A DNA stretch of 63,319 nt, the filler included, from Basidioascus undulatus (Eukaryota): NCBI GenBank assembly GCA_000826855.1. It is 12 parts of 12 records of this genome, joined end to end, with 100 filler letters (N's around TTAATTAATTAA, not from the genome) between each part and the next. Parts side by side here need not be neighbours in the genome. Positions count along the whole stretch, not along the records: positions 1 to 24,461 come from JTLS01000241.1; 11 more parts are not named here. The stretch is one strand, 5' to 3'. Below, one piece after another: positions 1 to 61,560 of the stretch; within the stretch, counting starts at the first letter, position 1, and each line of letters starts with the position of its first letter. Below the pieces are notes generated by a model. It worked only from the letters and a program-made list of their open reading frames with translations, made no database searches and was not told where the DNA came from. A program made the translations under genes and the position numbers.

Positions 1-65
1 GTTGCAGGTTCGATCCCTGCGTCGGTCAAGGCCGGCTGGCTCAATGGTAGAGTATCTGACTACGA
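1..65 (+). tRNA. tRNA-Arg(ACG) halves in permuted order (3' half 1-28, then 5' half 30-65); incomplete at the window edge
   Basis: T-arm GCAGG-TTCGATC-CCTGC (4-20), acceptor 3' strand GTCGGTC plus discriminator A (21-28). Then acceptor 5' strand GGCCGGC (30-36, pairs 7/7 with 21-27 including two G:U), D-arm GCTC-AATGGTA-GAGT, anticodon stem TCTGA and loop CT-ACG-A (anticodon 62-64). A T5 run follows at 67-71. Confidence 0.8.
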
Positions 66-1261
66 CTTTTTGAGCCTGAGGCTGGCTGTGGCCCACCTCA
101 GCGTTTGCCTTCCTTTTTTCACCTACTTAGTTTTACCTGGAGGGGCATGGCGTCGATGATTTACACATGTACATCCATTCTTTACAAACGTCTCTCATTG
201 GACCCACTTAGGATCAGTTCTTCGGGCTGTCGCTCCCTCTCCGGACTGGCAAGGCAGTCTATGTGGTGCAGCTGCCCGTGCCATTCTGACTCATCATTGA
301 GCGCTTTGGGGATCATAAATGATAATGACGCATAGTATCCATAATGTATTGAGCTAATGAGAGTCATCCTCTTGGGCCAAAAGCATTCATTAGGCTTACT
401 TCAATTTGTGCAGGGCTGGTCGGACGAACTGAAGTTGAGCAAGATCCAACGAAAAGGCCGAAACAGGCAGGGATTATTTGCCTGACGCAGCTGGAGAATA
501 TAGCCAGGGTTGTCTGAGCAGCGCAACTCATAGCTCAATAAGTTACTCCAGTTTCTGGCGCGAGGCAACAGATGGCAAAGCCGAAGTACCCCACGAACCA
601 GCAGGCGTTGACCCAGGCCTAGGCGCTGGCTCAACGTTTTCTCTATGCTGTGTAAGCTGGAAAGAAGATTTGCCTTTCGAACGAACTCATAACAACTACA
701 TGCACCACTTGACAGCCGAACTGCTTCTGTTCATCACCACCACGGCGCAAACCGGGATGCTCGAGATTGCTCTGCCTCCTCCATAAACCATCTGGGCCAA
801 TCACAACGCTTAGGTGCGCCACCTATTTATACCATAACTCCATCTTCGGCTTGAAAAGATCATGGTGCTCTGGTTCTCCTTCTATTAGTTGCCTCTACGC
901 CTCCGCTTCTGGAACTCCACCGTATTCCGCACACAGTCTCTTCACAAGATTTTGAAGCTCTTTTGATCCGTGTGATGTGCTTTTTGGGAATATAGCACTT
1001 CAGGTTGACTTGCTGTGATGTCTACAGCCCTCCTGCGTACAGGCTTCTTACGAGCTTGGCAGTTCCCGGGTCAGGTCCACCCGGCAGTACTCTGAGCGAC
1101 TACCCGGCAGGTAAATGTGGGACAGAGAGACGCAGGAAGAAGATCAACTTGTTCCCTCAAAAAGTGTGTGGAGCGTTCTGAAGATGCCTTTACGAGTTCG
1201 CGCAGCGCTGCTGGCGGGTGTCGCGGCATGAATCCGCCGCCCCTCTCTCCGCGAGACCACC

Positions 1262-23402: not shown

Positions 23403-24461
23403 ATGGTCCGCTTTCCGGCTTGCACTGGGCAGGAAGGAAACCGGGAATGCTGATGAGGGGTTGGGAGGGCAGCGTCCGATTCTGTTGCAGGGTGGGTGGG
23501 CTGGGAGAGGGTAGGAGTGAGAGTGGGATGGAATGGCTGATTGGGATTGTGCGCGGTGAATAGGTCACGAGCGTTCTCTGACGCAGATCGTCTGTGAGTA
23601 GTCCTCATGCAGTCTTAGACGGAAGCCACGCCACTTGCTCACCCCCTCCCCACCCCACAGACAACCGCGAAGGCGACCTTCTCTTGTCGTGCTCAAAGGA
23701 CCACGTCATAAACGTCTGGTTCTCGCACAACGGCGAGCGCCTTGGGACATACAACGGGCACAACGGCACCGTCTGGTCCGTCGCCGTCGACTCGTCGTCC
23801 ACGTACCTTGTCTCCGGCTCGGCCGACAACACGCTCAAGCTCTGGCACATCGCCACGGGCAAGTGCCTGTACACGTGGGAGTTCCCCACCGCTATCAAGC
23901 GCGTCGCGTGGAGCGAGGACGACGCGCGCATCGTCGCGGTCACGGAGCAGCGCATGGGGTATGCGGGCGCGATCCGCGTGTTTGAGATTAACAGGGAGGA
24001 GCCGACCCAGCGTGCGTCTTCCCTTTCCAACCTGTATTCCTCCCCTTCCCTTCCCGTCCCGTTTCCCCTTCTCCATTTCCCTCAACTGCTTCCTTCACCT
24101 TCCCGCCCGGCCTTCCATCTCACCCCACCCCCTCCTCGACAGAGCCCGCCGAGCCCCTCTACTTCTTCAACCCCCTCGGCTCCAAGGTGACCGTCGCCGC
24201 CTTCGCGCCGCTCTCCGAGCAGATCGTCACGGGGCACGAGTCCGGCAAGGTCGCGCGCTTCGACCTCAAGAGCGGCGAGGAGGTGCTTGGCAACGAGAAG
24301 GCGCACTTGGAGCCCGTCACCGACCTGCAGATGGCCCAGGACGGGACGTACTTCATCACGAGCTCGAAGGACAAGTGCGCGAGGGTACGTCCGGGGTTGG
24401 GAGGGGAGGGGAGGTGAGATGATGTGAGGGTGCGGGGAGGTAGTGGGAGAAGGTCAAGCGG
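23403..24461 (+). CDS. TIF34: Translation initiation factor eIF3 subunit I (WD40), 3'-truncated by gap
   Basis: M|RPILLQG|HERSLTQI|..NREGDLLLSCSKDHVINVWFSHNGERLGTYNGHNGTVW; YFITSSKDKCAR. Confidence 0.95.
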
Positions 24462-24561
24462 NNNNNNNNNNNNNNNNNNNNNNNNNNNNNNNNNNNNNNN
24501 NNNNNTTAATTAATTAANNNNNNNNNNNNNNNNNNNNNNNNNNNNNNNNNNNNNNNNNNNN
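24462..24561. other. Artificial contig spacer (N44-TTAATTAATTAA-N44); identical spacers at 28018, 31572, 35112, 38651, 42184, 45709, 49233, 52756, 56279 and 59801
   Basis: Identical 100-nt blocks containing a linker with stop codons in all six frames; genes are cut abruptly at each one. Confidence 0.97.
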
Positions 24562-30153: not shown

Positions 30154-31677
30154 GGAGAATGTGCTCTGGGCCGGGGACAACGGCGGCTGCCCTCCTTGAT
30201 CATTCGCCATGAGTTCGACCCTGTCCGCTACGGGAGAAAAAGAGACGAGGTCGTGGTGGTCGGTGGCCAAAGCTGTCCCGGGGGTCGCGTTTATATCACA
30301 CGCGACTAGCTCCGTCGTAAGATCTGTCGATCATCGTACCCTAATACCCCTGTAGTACATACTTACATCTGTGCTTGTCTGTGATGTTATTGAACTAATT
30401 CATCGCGACGTGCATGTGCGCTACTGTAGCGCTACGTAGGCATCGAATGCTGAGCGCCCTTCATGAGCCTCAATGACAGCAGTGCGACAGTGACGGCGCC
30501 TGGCAGGGCCGACAGCAGACCCACTGTTCGAATCCCGCTCGTCTGCAGCTTGGAAAATATGAGGAAAGGTGTGGTGAGCTTGATCAAGGGAAAGCAAACG
30601 ATTAGAGAAATCGTCCAGCCTACGCTGCGCTATTCTTCAATTGTCTTCAAGCGAGTCCCAGCCACCTGAATCTGCACTTGACCTGTACCACTCGCCGCCG
30701 TCCAATATCAACTAGCCGTCTGTTGCATGCGCATCTGACGATAAAGGAGGTCTAGAATATCAGTTAACCGCGGACAAGCCGTGATTCCCGACCTTGGGCT
30801 TCGCTGAGCATAATATAACGGTGGTTGGCAAAGTACGCCATATTGAACAGAAACCTGTCTCCGTTGAGAAGGCTGGCTGTCGCGGGCTGGGATGCGGTCG
30901 ACCCCAACGCACGCGGCCGCATCGTAGCAAGTTCTGGTTGGGTTTCGATCTTGTTTATAACGGGAGGAGCCCTCGTGGGAGAGGGGACGGCAATGGTCCA
31001 GCCGAACCGTTGCACTTTCCAAGATTCAGTTTGTGTCTTCGTTTCCTCACGCCCACAAAGCCAGCTTCGCGATTGCTCAGACACTTTTCTTCTTTCACGG
31101 TCCTTCCACTTGCCATTTGCAGCGCATTTGTTTCCAGAAGGGTACAGTTTGAACTGGAACGGTGCAAAGACGGCCCGGCACACGACGCGTGCAGCCGGGC
31201 CGAGCACTCCGCCTCTTGCAGCGGGCTAAGCAACAACATGAGGAGCGTACCCCTCTGATCACGACGGGGAGCAAGTCAATATACGCTAGGATGCTCACAT
31301 GTTCTATATTTCTTCCAAAGTGGGTCATCCGAATGAACTGCTTCGAGGGTTACGCGATCCAGAGGCGAGTCGCCTTGTACGAAGTAGTACTTCCCAGCTT
31401 CGACTGTGTTCTTTCGAGGAGTGATGATCGCTCGTCTGACCACCCAGCTCCACCTCGGTGTTTTACCGGCCCAAGAATGGCGTTACGATCTGTAAATGTC
31501 CAAGGAATACCAAGCCAGCGTGGGTCGATCGAAGAGGTACAAGTTGGCTTCATGGACGCTGTCCTTCAGCANNNNNNNNNNNNNNNNNNNNNNNNNNNNN
31601 NNNNNNNNNNNNNNNTTAATTAATTAANNNNNNNNNNNNNNNNNNNNNNNNNNNNNNNNNNNNNNNNNNNNTGCAAT

Positions 31678-31750
31678 GGGCATTTGGTGTAGGGGCTATC
31701 ACATCTCATTCGCATTGAGGGGGTCCCCGGTTCAATTCCGGGAATGTCCA
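31678..31750 (+). tRNA. tRNA-Ala(CGC), intronless
   Basis: Acceptor GGGCATT/AATGTCC with G3:U70; anticodon arm TCTCA-TTCGCAT-TGAGG; T-arm CCCGG-TTCAATT-CCGGG; T-rich 3' flank. Confidence 0.93.
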
Positions 31751-32509
31751 TTTAATTTGATAATATTTATTTTGTTTTGAGAGCGAGTTGGACCGAGATG
31801 AAAAGGCAGCAGAAGTTCTTTGGTTGCAGGTCAATCGTCGACGTGGTTGAGCTCAGGCTGCGAGTGAGATGACCAGGCAGCTAGACGAACATGCAGCGCC
31901 TGGCGGCCATGCAAGCGACGTTCCAGCTGCAGGATGCTTGTGTGAAAAGCCTCGGCTGTCGTATGGACTTGTCCATTCCATGAGCCGAACGCGCATTATT
32001 AAGAGAATGCTCACACGGCAGGGGCAAGCTGGCTGAGCGGCAAGCAGTGTTGGCAATTGCGCCTGTTTGTTCAATGTCAAACCCGCATACCACTGAAAAT
32101 TACAGAGTGGGCATAACATTCGTGTGTGTCAACAATATTACTCCAATAAAAGGGTAGCGCAAATAATGTCGAAATAGGGGTAATAACAGGGGTGGGTATC
32201 ATCATGGTATATCTACAACTGCTACTACTGCGTCGCTCAAACTGCAGTCCCAGTTCCGCAGAGGCAACCTCGGGAAGTCCAAAGGCTTCCAGCTCCTGTC
32301 CCTCTTCCTCTCCCTCTCTCCCTCGCGCGGGCCTGCTCGACCGAGTAGGCGCCGTTCGAGTGCCGCCGGAACTCCATCTGGGGCGCGTACGCCTCGGGCG
32401 CCTCGACGAGCGCTGCCCGGACAATGGACACCGCGCCCTAAGGCCTGGCTAATCGATTTGGAGCGAGATTTCCTGCATCCCGGACTGACTGCGCGTTCTC
32501 TCGCTCAGA

Positions 32510-33931: not shown

Positions 33932-35111
33932 TCAGCCTTTGGGGATCCACTCGCCCTTCCACAGCCCCCCCACAAAGCTGAGCGGCACCTTCTGCTCTCC
34001 GCCCCTCTCATCAGCACAACTCTCACTGCGTCCGCCCAATCCAAAATCACAACCCAGCCACAACGCACCGGGACGTCCCACACTCCCCCCTCCACGAACT
34101 CATCGAACAGCCACCCCGCCGTGCCCACCAACCAGAGCGCGACCCACGCCCTGCCCGTCTTGCTCCCCAAACCGAGCGCGCGCTCAAGCGCGATCCCGAG
34201 CGGCTGGGCGAGGAAGAACTTTGCTGCGCCCGCGCCTGCCGTGGGGATGGGCAGCGTCCGCGCGCCGGCGACGTGCACGAGCGCGGAGAGGGCGAAGGGC
34301 GTTATCAGCCTGAGGGGGAGCTCGAGCGCGCGGGGTGCGTGCGCTACGAAGGAGCGCGTCAAGACTAAGAAGGGACGCCGGAAAGTCTGGTGCCAGAACC
34401 TTCCCCAGAAGGTGGCGAGCGAAGCGGTATCCTCCGTGAGGGACCCGAAGAAGTCAGGCCATTCTTGTGGGGCGCTGATGCGAACGGGGAGGGAGACGGC
34501 GAGGAGGGAGAGGAGCGTATATGGCAGGAGGATGAACGTGTATGCTGTGAGGCCGCAGAGGGCGAGGTGTGCTATCCGCATGTGGGGCGGCTGGAGGGGC
34601 AGGGGCGGGTGCGAGAAGGGCGAGCGGGGGGAGGAGGTGTAGGTTGAGAGGGCGTCGAGGGCCAGGTAGAGCGCGAGGAGGCGCGCGAGGCGCGAGCGGA
34701 CGAAGGCGGATCGAGTGATCGATTTCGAAATGAACATTGCGGGACGTCTAGAGGTCGAGTCGAACCCGACAAGTCTGGGGGAACACAGCAGCCTTACAAC
34801 CCATTTCGCCTTCCCCCACACGCCCGCCCTCTCGTGCGGGCGCGGCGTAAGCCCCAGCTCCGGCGGTGCGACGAGCAGGAGCTCGACCGCGCGGAGGAGG
34901 GTGTACATGCTCGATGCTGCGAGGGTGTAGTCGAGCTTGGGGTTGGCGGTGGTGTATGTGTTGGAGAGGAGGGCGAGGGACGCGACGAGGATGAGGGGGA
35001 GGAAGAGGGAGGGGCGTAAGAGGGAGCATGGGGGCAGGAGGAGGGCGAGGAAGAGGAGCGTTGAGGGGAGGAGAGGAAGATAGGGCGGGAGGGGGGGGAT
35101 CGGAAGAGCGT
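33932..35111 (-). CDS. Membrane-bound O-acyltransferase (MBOAT_2 / wax-synthase / TRI7-like), 5'-truncated by gap
   Basis: EWPDFFGSL...SLATFWGRFWHQTFRRPF; FALSALVH; FFLAQPLGIALE; GRAWVALWL; last exon KVPLSFVGGLWKGEWIPKG*. Confidence 0.88.
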
Positions 35112-35300
35112 NNNNNNNNNNNNNNNNNNNNNNNNNNNNNNNNNNNNNNNNNNNNTTAATTAATTAANNNNNNNNNNNNNNNNNNNNNNNNNNNNNNNNN
35201 NNNNNNNNNNNACGTGCGTCTTCCCTTCCCTTCCCCCCATCCCTTCCCGTCCCCCATCCCCCACCCTCCTTTACCTTACCATCCCATCGCTTTCCGACAG

Positions 35301-36295
35301 GGAGTCTGCTACCTCGGCACCGAATGGTGCGTTGGAAGAGGAAAGAGCCTGGGTGGTCTGGTGGGCTGATGTGGGGGATGGGGACAGGGCGATGAACCCC
35401 GTAGTCCGCTCCGACATCGTCGTCTCCCACTTCTTGGACTCGGTCGGCGGGTACAGGCATAAGGATCGGAGGGACAGGCTGCTGGATATTCTGGATGTGG
35501 ATCTCGTGCGTCCCTCCCTCATCCCCCCATCTTCCCAAAGTAGAGGGCTGAGCACAGTGGGACTGAGGGCAGGACTGGCACATGCACCAAGTGTCCGACG
35601 GCGAGCGCCGGCGCGTGCAGCTCGTCATGGGGCTCATGGCGCCCTGGCGCGTCCTCCTCCTCGACGAGGTCACCGTCGACCTCGACGTCATGGTCCGCGC
35701 CGACCTGCTCGACTTTCTGATTGAGGAGAGCGAGGTGCGGGGGGCGACGATCGTTTGTAGGTCCTTCTGCTTTCCTCCCTTCTTTCCATTTTCCCATCTC
35801 CCTTCCCTCGCTCCTCTGCCCTTCCTTGACAGCCGGGCCTGACCTGCCCATCCCTTAACTTCCCGCTTTTTTCAGACGCGACCCACATCTGTGCGCCCTA
35901 ATCGAGACCATGTTTGCCCCCTCCACCCCTGCCTGACGCACAGCCCCACAGTCGACGGCCTCCAAACCTTTCCCACGCACGTCTCCCACCTGCAGCTCGG
36001 CACGACCACCACCTCCTCCCCCCTCCCGTGGCCCCTGCCCCCCTCTTCCTCTCCTTCCCTCTCTCCTTCCACCAACGCCACCCTCACCACCGCCTCCTCC
36101 TCTTCCGCCTCGGGCGGCTCCCCCCTCCTCTCCCTCGCGCTCCAATGGCTCCGCGAGGACCGGGCAGAGCGCAAGCGGCGGGAGGACGCGGAGGGCATTG
36201 AGGGCAAGCGGAGGAGGGGAGCGAGGAGGGGAGAGGAGACGACGGATAGTGAGGAGTTTTATTCGAAATTTGACTATGTGAGTTTTTGCATTTGA
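35301..36295 (+). CDS. CAF16: Non-transporter ABC ATPase, CCR4-associated factor 16; 5'-truncated, final exon uncertain
   Basis: [61 protein letters not shown]. Confidence 0.9.
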
Positions 36296-45262: not shown

Positions 45263-45808
45263 GCTGCTAGAGTTTGAAAGTGGTTTGAGTAGGTAATGTT
45301 AGTGTCAGCAAGTGAGTTGTTAATGTGCGTGTGGGATGATGAAGGTTGGAAGGCAAGGAAGAACGCCGGACCGTCCCGCCTTGCGGCCTCCGGTCGCCAC
45401 CGTGCCTTGCCGACGGATAGACACAGACAGTCCCAGTCGACCCACAAAACGAGCACCATGGCCCAAAGATGCAGGCGCAAGCGAACAATATAAAATCTTT
45501 TAATATAGCCCTCTATGCGGTGTACTGAACGCTATGTCCGCCACTGTCCCTCTGCCAGATCGCCGCCATTTGCTCCCCGCATTTCTTCGCTCGGTTCCAT
45601 CTCTCCCTCCCCCGCCCCGTTCCCGTTCCCCGCTCCCTCCTCCGTCGCGTCCTCCTTATGCCTATTTGCACCCCTTCGCACCCCTTCCCCCCCCCCCCCC
45701 CCCCCCTGNNNNNNNNNNNNNNNNNNNNNNNNNNNNNNNNNNNNNNNNNNNNTTAATTAATTAANNNNNNNNNNNNNNNNNNNNNNNNNNNNNNNNNNNN
45801 NNNNNNNN

Positions 45809-56629: not shown

Positions 56630-58237
56630 CTACTTCTTCCCGCCCCCGCCTCCCTTCCCCTTCCCCTTCCCACCGATCCCCTTGCCCTCAAAGCCGGCCC
56701 GCTTCTTGCCCCCACCCGCACCACCCGCCTTCTTCCCGCCGGCGCCCTTGCCGAGGCGCTTGGCCTTGCGCGCCTCGTTGCGCGATGCGATGTTGTCCTG
56801 GCGCTTCTTTTGCGCGACCGCCATCGACTTGGTGAGCTGCTCTTTGCGGTCGGCCCTGTGGGGGAGGGAGAGGAGTGGGGGCGCGTTAGCGGGGAGGATA
56901 GAGAGGGGAGGAAGAAGGAATGTTGGGGGAGAAGGTAGTTGGGGAAAACGGGAGGAGGTATAGAGGAAAGACGGGATGGGGACGGGAAAGGGAAGATAGA
57001 GCAGGACGCACCACTCCTTCGCGCTCCTCTGCTTCTCCTTCTCCTTCCGCTTAACAGCCTTCTTCAGCCGTCCCTCATCGTCCCTAACCTTCTCGCCCCC
57101 GGCCCTAGCCTCCGCAGCGCGCCACCTCTCACGCTCCTCCGCGCTCTGCTTGGCCTCGCCGTCGAGCGCAGCGAGCTTCGCCTTCTTGCTCGCGAGCTGC
57201 GCGAGCGCGGCCTTAGGGTCGGAGGGGCCGCGCAGCTTGTGCGAGGTCGCGGGGGCGGTGGAGCCGAGCGTTTTGTGGTGTAGGGCTGAGAACTGGAGGG
57301 TGGGCCCGGAGGAGGCGGAGGGGCCGGTGGAGGCGCTGGGGCCGGCGCGAGGGGGCGCGACGGCTTCGAGAAGGGCCTGGGGGGGGGTCGAATGCAATGA
57401 GTACAAGTCCAGAGGAACGACGTCAAGAAGCGGGGAAGGGAGAAAGCGGAGAAGGGAGAAACCCACCTTGCCCGTGTTCCCCTGCCCCTGCCTCCTCTCC
57501 GCCTTCCGCTCCCTCCTCCGCCGATCGCGCATCTCCCCGCGCTTCCTCCTCCGCTCCTCAAGGAGCGCGTCCTTGCTCTCGTCTGCGGGGTCAAACCCCC
57601 CACGCCGGCGCTGGAAGAACGCGATCCGGCCGTGCAGCTTCGCGCGCAGGGCGGTGATGCTCGTTGGGGCCGCCATGGGCTTGAGGAGGGCGGAAGAGGG
57701 AGTGGTGGTAGAGGGGGAGTCCTCGGCCTCGGAGAACTCGTCGGCGATGTCGGAGAAGCCGGGCTCGTTGGGAGAGTCGGAAGCGTCGTCGGATGCGTCG
57801 GAGCGGGCGGAGGCGGCGTCGGGAGCGGAGGAGGCGGATGCGAGTGCCGCGGCCTTTTCGGCGTTCAGCTGAGGGATCGTCTTGGCGTTGGCGGGGTCGA
57901 GCTGGGAGAAAGGGAGATGGGGTGTCAGTAACGTGCGGCAAGGGTAGTCTGGAGAGCCAATGCGGCAGCAAGCCAGCGTCTTCGCCAACTTCAACTCCTC
58001 GCCCGCCGTCCGATCTCGAGCTGCTGGGCATGAACACACCTTAGCCCTCTTGGCCTCCCCACGCTTCTCCTTCCTCCTAAGCGCCTCAGCCTGCTCGTCG
58101 GCCTTCTTCCTCTTGTTCTTGAGGTACTTCGAGTCGTGCTCGGCGTCGTCGGTGACGATGTAGTACTGCGCGGGGATGAGCGAGAGCAGCTTCTCGAACG
58201 ACGCGTTGTGCGCCGTGAGTGAGGGGAGGAGCGCCAT
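56630..58237 (-). CDS. RRP14: Ribosome biogenesis protein Rrp14/SURF6
   Basis: [70 protein letters not shown]. Confidence 0.92.
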
Positions 58238-59800: not shown

Positions 59801-61560
59801 NNNNNNNNNNNNNNNNNNNNNNNNNNNNNNNNNNNNNNNNNNNNTTAATTAATTAANNNNNNNNNNNNNNNNNNNNNNNNNNNNNNNNNNNNNNNNNNNN
59901 GGAAAGGGTGAGAGCGTAAAATGAGGTGGCAAGGTTTGACAGTTGTCGAGGATTGAATGTTTGTTAAGACGTTCATGACAGTGATTGCCTATAGTTGTGA
60001 TCAGTGCACTGAACTAAATGGCTTTTCACCATCATGTAGATGAATGTTTTACAACTCAATTGACATCCCTAAGCAGTTGTAAAATCAGGCAAATGATGGA
60101 TCCGTGGCTCACACTTCTGAAGTGAGGTTTCTAACTGTCTCTGAAAAACAGCCTGTGTCTGCTATGGAGTGCTATTGATCAGAGCATTTGGGCTTGTCTT
60201 CACTCAAACCTCATTCTGTCCACTACCAGCTCAGTGCAACCTGGGCAGGGTGACAGGACAGAAAGAAACCCCTGCAAGTTGTGTCACACACTGGAGCTGC
60301 TGACTAGCAGAAACATGCATATCTTGAAACCCACAGCCTGTTCTGCAGTGTCTTTACATGGGAAGACCCCCAAAGGTTGCAAACTACGTGCTCCTTACGA
60401 GCTTAAGGATTTCTGATGGTTAAAGTTCTGCAGTGTATGTCCTGCACTGTTCTGAACGCAATAGCGGCACACTGCAAGATACACTAACTATATAATAATT
60501 TCCTGCAACGCCGCCTTAACTCTTCTTCTTTTCATGGCGATAGATCTGCATTTCATCTAGAATCGAAGCTTGCCAAAGCTGCCGGGCTTCGCAAGCCGAG
60601 CCCGAGACATGGCAGGTCGCTGCCAGCTGCGCCTTGAGTCGAGTCACGCCGGGTCCGATCTCAACTTCTTCATGGACCAGGACCAGTTGCTCCTTCGATG
60701 TGGCTTTCGATTTTTGTCGACGGAAAGAAAGCATCTGGGCCGGGTCTACGCATGTTCGACTTGAACTGTGCAACACATTTTTGACACTCACGGAGTGTCG
60801 CGTGGTCAACCTTATCTAGAGGGTCACGGCGTCCATGCATGCACCCGTGACTTTCCTAGTAAACGTGGACAATAAGTAGCATGGCTAAGATGCAGCTCAT
60901 TGCGGTGCAGACTGCAGTGCAGCGATGGCGACGTTCCCAGTGTGCGTACTGTATCGATAATAGAGAGCCCGCTTGAGCGAATTGGGAGAAAAGATCGCTC
61001 GCTTCTCGCGCGCCTCTTGTCCTCCGCCCTCACCTTCGTCGTCGTCGACACCCGCCCCCCGTCCGGTCACCCCGCGCTCGCCTTTCTAGAGCGCCTCTAG
61101 GTCAGTCGCAGCCCTTTCTGTTGCGACGTACGAGCGCAGTTTCAGGCGTTCGGCTCCCCCTCGCCTTTGCATAGTGCTGACTCGATTCCGTCGTTCGACG
61201 TGATTGGCTCGTTCGAACGACGCAGGCCCGCCAGGCCGTATTCGACCGTAGACCGTCCTCATTCCGCATCAAAGCCCATCTTATCTACCGCAAGATTGCC
61301 GTCATGTGCGTACCGCGTCCATTCGCCGCTGTCGCGACCGCACACATGCTGACGGTGCATGTGTTGGATGCGAACAGGTACCGCCTTTAAGGTACGGTCT
61401 GCATCTCCCGGTCTTATGTGGAGCGAGCCATCAGGGCTGAACCCGGTCGTGCGCTCCCCCATCTGCAGCATTTCGACGTTACCGAGCCCGGACATTCCCA
61501 CCCAGGATGCCCAACCCAGCACGCCTTTCGAAGCCAGCCAGCTTCGCTCTCCCTCTCAAC

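Follow-up and report, generated by a model that had tools for sequence, protein, structure and literature searches.

A dispersed, multicopy tRNA-Arg(ACG)-like unit in permuted order at a contig end of the fungus Basidioascus undulatus

The window analysed here is a stretch of 63,319 nucleotides from the assembly GCA_000826855.1 of the fungus Basidioascus undulatus. Its first 72 bases carry the two halves of a transfer RNA (tRNA) for arginine, tRNA-Arg(ACG), in permuted order, with the 3′ half placed before the 5′ half, and they belong to a dispersed family of roughly 10-50 copies. [quoted passage not shown] Shown directly are the anatomy of the unit, the reality and copy number of the junction between its halves, the abrupt 3′ edge past which unrelated flanks begin, and upstream sequences that vary between copies. 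The original prediction had proposed a possible circularly permuted tRNA-Arg(ACG) gene. The layout and the junction behind that proposal are real. A multicopy family with ragged or heterogeneous upstream parts, which the prediction did not anticipate, fits a tRNA-derived repeat at least equally well.

All elements of the unit lie on the plus strand. Bases 1-3 (GTT) are tRNA positions 46-48, with which the variable loop ends, and the unit is cut here at the contig end. The T-arm follows at 4-20 (GCAGG / TTCGATC / CCTGC); it contains the B-box-like GGTTCGATCC, matches the tRNA model, and forms a hairpin in both the minimum free energy (MFE) and the centroid structure. Next come the 3′ acceptor strand GTCGGTC (21-27) and the discriminator base A28, and CCA is not encoded (21-28). 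The one-base spacer A29 stands between tRNA positions 73 and 1, and this junction lies inside an exact multicopy unitig. The 5′ half (30-65), recognised from the sequence, from Rfam and by ARAGORN on re-joined halves, covers tRNA positions 1-37 and has the A-box-like TGGCTCAATGG in the D-arm. It comprises the acceptor strand GGCCGGC (30-36), T8 and G9 (37-38), the D-arm GCTC-AATGGTA-GAGT (39-53), A26 (54), the anticodon-stem strand TCTGA (55-59), C32 and T33 (60-61), the anticodon ACG (62-64), and A37 (65). C66 and the run TTTTT (67-71) resemble a Pol III terminator and, by the sequence and the read contigs, form the 3′ edge of the repeated unit (66-71). The predicted succession of a 3′ half ending in A28, a single A, and a complementary 5′ half that stops one base past the anticodon, at the 37/38 site, before C-TTTTT was thus found base for base.

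The two acceptor strands (21-27 and 30-36) are complementary at seven of seven positions, with five Watson-Crick and two G-T pairs (p = 0.0014 for a random 7-mer of the composition of the window). By eye, the tertiary landmarks are intact, namely U8-A14, A15-U48, G18 and G19, T54-A58, and U33; a Levitt pair between T3 (position 48) and A44 (position 15) is feasible. The fold of all of 1-72 is no more stable than that of its shuffles (z-score 0.09). The acceptor stem would close over only two bases, A28 and A29, and the MFE structure opens the end pair into a four-base loop because these two bases alone are unable to close it. In the visible part, the B-box (9-19) lies 5′ of the A-box (37-47), the reverse of the A-then-B order in the head of a tRNA-derived short interspersed element (SINE).

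The tRNA model of Rfam matched bases 1-28 with its positions 45-71 (14.4 bits, E 1.1, flagged as 5′-truncated) and bases 30-88 (15.9 bits, E 0.42), both below threshold. The best Rfam score was obtained on 1-53 with YrlA (RF02553; 28.5 bits, E 8.6e-5), well under its gathering score (69). This bacterial Y-RNA-like family, which Ro60 binds, has a naturally permuted tRNA-like module. The unit shares with it the order of T-arm, closed acceptor stem and D-arm, and differs in its anticodon ACG and its Pol III-type terminator, which makes this a resemblance of layout only. ARAGORN, with and without its intron search, called zero tRNAs in genomic order at 1-72. When bases 30-65, eight bases (positions 38-45) borrowed from a sister copy, and bases 1-28 were re-joined in silico, the same program called a tRNA-Arg(acg). 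The predicted lack of a downstream T-arm was borne out, since no second T-arm was detected within the 63-kb window at up to 3 mismatches, which rules out a long-intron gene with the 5′ half as its opening exon; the ARAGORN intron search likewise excludes such a gene. The 63-kb window harbours no other copy of the unit.

The junction was followed in sequencing reads, using contigs built at k = 31 from three runs (X1, X2 and X3). X1 and X2 cover all of positions 1-1500, and X3 is a smaller run of the sample of X2 that contains the repeat only. X1 and X2 may be the source reads of the assembly, and their unitigs check the assembly, not the biology; copy-level detail comes from 21 of 81 pieces, with some records dropped by the filter. 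A 56-base unitig that contains window positions 1-54 exactly was present in both X1 and X2, and so crosses the junction A28-A29-G30, as the original prediction called for. Its depth is 175.4 in X1, against 18.4 for single-copy sequence, and 472.7 in X2, against 46.9, corresponding to about 10 copies. This recurrence of the junction in the reads puts the feature far beyond chance. Unitig variants with one mismatch reach 298.3 (X1) and 650 and 713.6 (X2), or about 14-16 copies. The summed depths in X1 and X2 are 787.6 and 2550.9 over bases 1-34, and 4008.8 and 12678.4 over bases 35-68, and are flat at 18.4 and 46.9 from base 103. These sums are inflated because short unitigs overlap by 30 bases; hence they give only a rough range and are taken as dozens of copies. 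The contig to which the window copy itself belongs (32 kb in X1, 37 kb in X2) spans bases 43-1000 and continues further. Among 37 matching X1 records, 26 are at least 99% similar, nine 95-99%, and two 90-95%.

These exact multicopy unitigs in two runs also remove the idea that the arrangement is an assembly artefact, with two pieces of a multicopy tRNA misjoined at a contig end. The terminal location of the unit would suit such a misjoin, as would the fragmentary state of the assembly, which has an adapter-like remnant at another contig end. Nevertheless, the unitigs contain 1-54 exactly and showed no other way into the 5′ half from the left, and a misjoin is now extremely improbable.

The 3′ edge of the family is sharp. 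In X1 and in X2, 11 contigs exit the unit at this edge, one after base 65, one after base 70, six after base 71 and three after base 72. Their right flanks are mutually unlike (consensus agreement 0.47 and 0.52), and the contig of the window is unique from base 73. Since the right flanks disagree past a common end, the copies sit at dispersed loci. About a dozen such loci share a 3′ edge at C-T(4 to 7) and run on into unrelated single-copy flanks. The unit thus shares with SINEs a dispersed multicopy distribution and a defined 3′ end (11 distinct right flanks per run). Its tail is a T-run and not A-rich, and a poly(A)-type retroposon was rejected in either orientation on grounds of geometry, because the T-run sits at the sense 3′ end.

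C66-T67-71 is the sole terminator-like signal near the unit. The predicted GC hairpin at 76-101 (76-81 paired to 96-101) does exist, with -16.3 kcal/mol, although its stability is unremarkable (z-score -1.8; 9 of 200 shuffles are equally stable). Read depth places it in the single-copy flank at 73-102, outside the repeated unit, and it was discarded as a component of the unit. The only canonical tRNA gene in the window, a tRNA-Ala(CGC) gene, has its first run of four Ts about 24 bases beyond the gene end. With this gene as the one example, the sequence suggests that a run of four to five Ts probably stops Pol III in this fungus. The tRNA-Ala(CGC) gene (31677-31751, plus strand) has the pair G3-T70, begins 5 bases past a linker and is followed by an A+T-rich 3′ flank.

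Several short repeats were noted around the T-run. GGCTCAA in the D-arm (38-44) is exactly complementary to TTGAGCC (70-76) just past the T-run, and GGCTGGCT at 34-41 is directly repeated at 80-87, where it is able to pair with the 5′ acceptor strand. The motif TTGAG occurs at 70-74, recurs ahead of A38 in a record of run X3, and is seen as T5-GAG upstream in a diverged copy. It might be a remnant of an intron or leader; it also exactly complements the CTCAA of the D-arm, hence it could be a templated repair insert or chance.

The upstream side of the family is ragged. Contigs with a loose end ahead of base 30, that is, with a unique leader before G1, numbered 0 of 12 in X1 and 0 of 12 in X2. 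On the right-flank side, contigs that share about 30 bases with the unit seem to be recovered, and leader-bearing contigs should therefore likewise have appeared. As read in these contigs, every copy of this 5′ half (at least 90% alike) is preceded by the junction. Sister copy (a), in a contig of 2,580 bases in X1 and 50,729 in X2, matches bases 2-54 with 3 differences and is unrelated immediately leftward; its last 30 upstream bases include T5-GAG and have no recognisable stem strand. Sister copy (b), in a contig of 4,220 bases in X1 and 18,542 in X2, has 6 differences in 1-71 and in both runs stops 11 bases ahead of base 1. Such an end implies, by the logic of de Bruijn assembly, that bases -12 to 18 at the least recur in other copies, from which we infer that the repeat extends at least 4 bases past position 38.

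Sister copy (c) is a 93-base record of X3 that consists of window positions 21-50 (1 difference), then TTGAGATCAGGGG, then window positions 1-50 (0 differences). Upstream of base 1, it possesses A38, the stem strand TCAGG (five of five pairs with TCTGA) and GG; ahead of A38 it has TTGAG and only positions 1-22 of the 5′ half. It therefore represents a 63-base head-to-tail unit with the identical one-base spacer and without an anticodon. The presence of A38 and the stem strand upstream is expected of a permuted gene and of a complete gene alike. Upstream parts thus differ among copies, and at least one locus has tandem units.

The preferred reading, a permuted-order tRNA-derived repeat, may be envisaged as follows. 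Its ancestors were most likely tRNA-Arg units arranged head to tail, with the break at 37/38, the intron site. The block could then have spread by retroposition of a Pol III transcript that ended in the T-run, or by duplication as a gene family, and what is left today would be a family of tRNA-derived repeats or pseudogenes, distinct from the tRNA-Arg with which the cell decodes. The T-run, as the common 3′ edge, most likely acts or formerly acted as a Pol III stop, and a Pol III transcript arriving from upstream would terminate at 67-71, carrying the 3′ half, A29 and the 5′ half. The repeated nature of the unit would explain why the source assembly was cut at base 1. What we infer here from the observed features is transcription by Pol III, the way the unit spread and the absence of a decoding function.

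A repeat of this kind agrees with the multicopy junction, with the sharp 3′ edge against a ragged upstream side, with the spread of copy ages, and with the tandem and truncated variants. The B-box before the A-box and the two-base acceptor loop point the same way. According to a review (PMC3978253), a B-box upstream of the A-box is unsuited to a TFIIIC promoter. tRNA-derived repeats are recorded for a subset of fungal genomes in the tRNAscan-SE 2.0 paper (PMC8450103), and Helenus elements in basidiomycetes (Kojima 2024, PMC10886601). Several observations weigh against such a repeat. As in type II permuted tRNA genes, the break lies exactly at 37/38 and a terminator follows immediately, and all tertiary landmarks checked by eye are intact. 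Most copies are at least 99% alike, which is also compatible with purifying selection, and about a dozen loci is the size expected of a major tRNA gene family. A T-run tail is unusual for a retroposed SINE. The fungus also needs a tRNA-Arg(ACG): CGC is its commonest arginine codon (66 of 213), and CGT, CGC and CGA together account for 114 of 213, as counted in predicted genes, namely six of the eight ATG-start open reading frames (ORFs) of at least 250 codons, picked from 17 ORFs. Within the X1 and X2 contigs, this 5′ half did not occur in any canonical tRNA-Arg(ACG) gene, a search that genes with at least 4 differences in their first 30 bases would have escaped.

The observations that count against a repeat are largely those that would favour a working family of circularly permuted tRNA-Arg(ACG) genes, which we regard as possible but unlikely. 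Transcription of each locus would start at a promoter further upstream, run across the 3′ half, the spacer A29 and the 5′ half, and stop at the T-run. A37 and position 38 would be linked into a circle by the splicing endonuclease together with a tRNA ligase, ribonuclease (RNase) P and RNase Z (or an exonuclease) would open the acceptor end and drop the A, and CCA would be added. In its strong form, that the major tRNA-Arg(ACG), read as ICG, is encoded only by multicopy permuted genes and matured via a circle by the fungal splicing endonuclease and a Trl1-type ligase, the proposal is likewise doubtful. The homogeneous unit with conservation ending at the T-run in about 12 loci is what a selected gene family would give, and the 7/7 acceptor pairing together with the ARAGORN call on the halves plus 8 sister-copy bases agrees with it. 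So do the absence of loose ends before G1, the lack of a canonical gene with this 5′ half, and the demand for this tRNA set by codon usage. In yeast-type introns, an intron base at such a place pairs with C32, and by eye the G three positions before A38 in the X3 sister copy could do the same.

Type II permuted genes, broken at 37/38, are known from Cyanidioschyzon merolae, prasinophyte green algae and the Bigelowiella nucleomorph (Soma 2007; Maruyama 2010; review PMC3978253). The unit shares with them the 3′ half before the 5′ half on the same strand, the break after position 37, the T-stretch directly past the 5′ half, a short 73/1 spacer without promoter or terminator, and the lack of an encoded CCA (PMC3978253); with positions 38-45 taken from the sister copy, it also yields a canonical cloverleaf. 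It differs from them in its fungal host, in its dozen or more dispersed loci in place of single genes, in its one-base spacer, and in being known here from its 3′-terminal part. As a gene of this type it would also have a leader and trailer that form a BHB or yeast-type splice motif around 37/38, a TATA-like promoter upstream, and a circular RNA intermediate that leads to a mature, CCA-ended tRNA. Permuted tRNA genes are described from red and green algae, one nucleomorph and the archaeon Thermofilum pendens, and only from these in the sources cited (PMC3978253, PMC4033280). Their intervening sequences range from 1 to 74 nucleotides (7-74 in algae), and the sole one-base case given is archaeal and encodes CCA (PMC3978253), which places the spacer seen here, without CCA, at the extreme low end. 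A one-base spacer with a two-base acceptor loop would also be awkward for RNase P and RNase Z. Further points against permuted genes are that the repeat seems to extend past position 38, judging by sister copy (b), that upstream parts are heterogeneous, and that diverged canonical genes would have been missed by the read search. Permuted genes would in principle be possible in eukaryotes that combine 37/38 introns with upstream promoters, most of which nonetheless lack them (PMC3978253).

The original prediction had itself offered another explanation, a complete upstream gene plus a truncated tandem copy. Here this would mean a complete tRNA-Arg(ACG) gene just upstream of base 1, with 29-66 as the truncated second copy in its 3′ trailer. 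The T-run would then terminate the complete gene, and RNase Z would release the half copy as a trailer fragment. It is the simplest reading of a contig that starts within a tRNA, in an assembly that also breaks at a tRNA-Ala(CGC), and the X3 record with head-to-tail units and an identical one-base spacer speaks for it. The rough, about twofold excess of junction copies (about 26x) over T-run exits (about 12) would fit more than one junction per locus. However, the loose end with a unique leader that such a gene predicts before base 30 was seen in none of the 12 cases in either run, which points away from it, and an identical 37/38 break in every copy is unexpected of random partial duplication. 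We consider a complete upstream gene rather improbable. Known head-to-tail tRNA units with stray extra halves around a 37/38 break resemble the X3 sister copy in arrangement, and they differ from the family in the one-base spacer found here, in the missing anticodon stem-loop of the X3 unit, and in the many dispersed loci with a common truncated end.

Alternatively, the tRNA-like pieces may be part of another mobile element whose body lies upstream of base 1, such as a tRNA-bearing long terminal repeat (LTR) element or terminal-repeat retrotransposon in miniature (TRIM) like Helenus. Pucciniales and some Agaricomycetes harbour Helenus TRIMs whose LTRs are tRNA-like, and anticodon-loop primers are used by many of the fungal ones (PMC10886601). 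The unit is dispersed and multicopy, tRNA-like and with well-kept A- and B-box motifs in a member of the Basidiomycota, similar to fungal tRNA-derived repeats and to Helenus (PMC8450103, PMC10886601). In contrast, these elements have their tRNA-like part in normal order within a SINE or an LTR, and Helenus LTRs specifically have the A and B boxes so arranged (PMC10886601), whereas the unit shows permuted order, a T-run as its 3′ edge and single-copy flank immediately after it. No LTR or internal region can therefore lie directly past the T-run, and the visible part of the unit has no pair of LTRs, TG...CA ends, primer binding site, polypurine tract or 5-bp target duplication. An element of this type is a poor candidate.

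The supposition that permuted tRNA genes were unreported from fungi agrees with a literature search on permuted tRNA, which found no fungal case in its listings and abstracts. A 23-base string of the 5′ half gave zero literature matches. With N allowed in place of the spacer base, a search of metagenomes for the junction retrieved 28 loci, none of which continued as a tRNA on either side by eye; they look like chance matches in G+C-rich bacterial coding DNA and were set aside. A 28-base piece of the 5′ half and the junction with the D-arm had 0 matches in collections of genome contigs and viral contigs, a result that says little because these collections contain no fungi.

The window consists of 12 contigs joined by 100-base linkers (N44, TTAATTAATTAA, N44), from 24462-24561 to 59801-59900. 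The first contig has 24,461 bases, and the other eleven follow in falling order of length, from 3,456 to 3,419, so that gene order across linkers is meaningless. Base 1 is very probably a contig end. A second contig begins 5 bases before the tRNA-Ala(CGC) gene, suggesting that tRNA-like repeats are preferred break points of this assembly. Most of the small contigs begin or end in low-complexity runs rich in G/A or C/T (GGGAGG / CCCTCC), for example at 24342-24461, 34992-35111 and 35212-35330, and the contig end at 45589-45708 has a run of about 20 Cs near 45708. These low-complexity ends are probably the points where the assembler stopped. At one extreme contig end, after a G run, the sequence GATCGGAAGAGC is present at 35098-35109 (plus strand; once, against 0.02 expected by chance), which resembles a remnant of an Illumina adapter.

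That the host is a fungus, as the original prediction assumed, and one of basidiomycete type, is supported by an ORF of 535 codons at 56630-58237 (minus strand), predicted to encode a SURF6/Rrp14-like protein (PF15459 and PF04935 in its matches). Its best matches are proteins of Agaricomycetes and Tremellomycetes, with 35-40% identity, in a search that retrieved 195 proteins at E <= 0.001 among 8,000 scored candidates. No close relative of the fungus appears among the named matches to this predicted protein.

Functional permuted genes, if that is what these are, would be without precedent in fungi (Opisthokonta) and as a multicopy family, and among cases that lack an encoded CCA no shorter intervening sequence would be on record. 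They would also show that a permuted precursor can be handled by splicing and end-processing enzymes of the yeast type, in a genetically approachable host. If the family is instead, as we think more likely, a tRNA-derived repeat, it would be new in its permuted order and in ending at the intron site: an unusual, homogeneous and dispersed unit that keeps all tRNA landmarks back to front. Standard tRNA finders would miss or misread the unit, as ARAGORN did in calling nothing, and this bears on tRNA gene counts and on apparently missing isoacceptors in draft fungal genomes.

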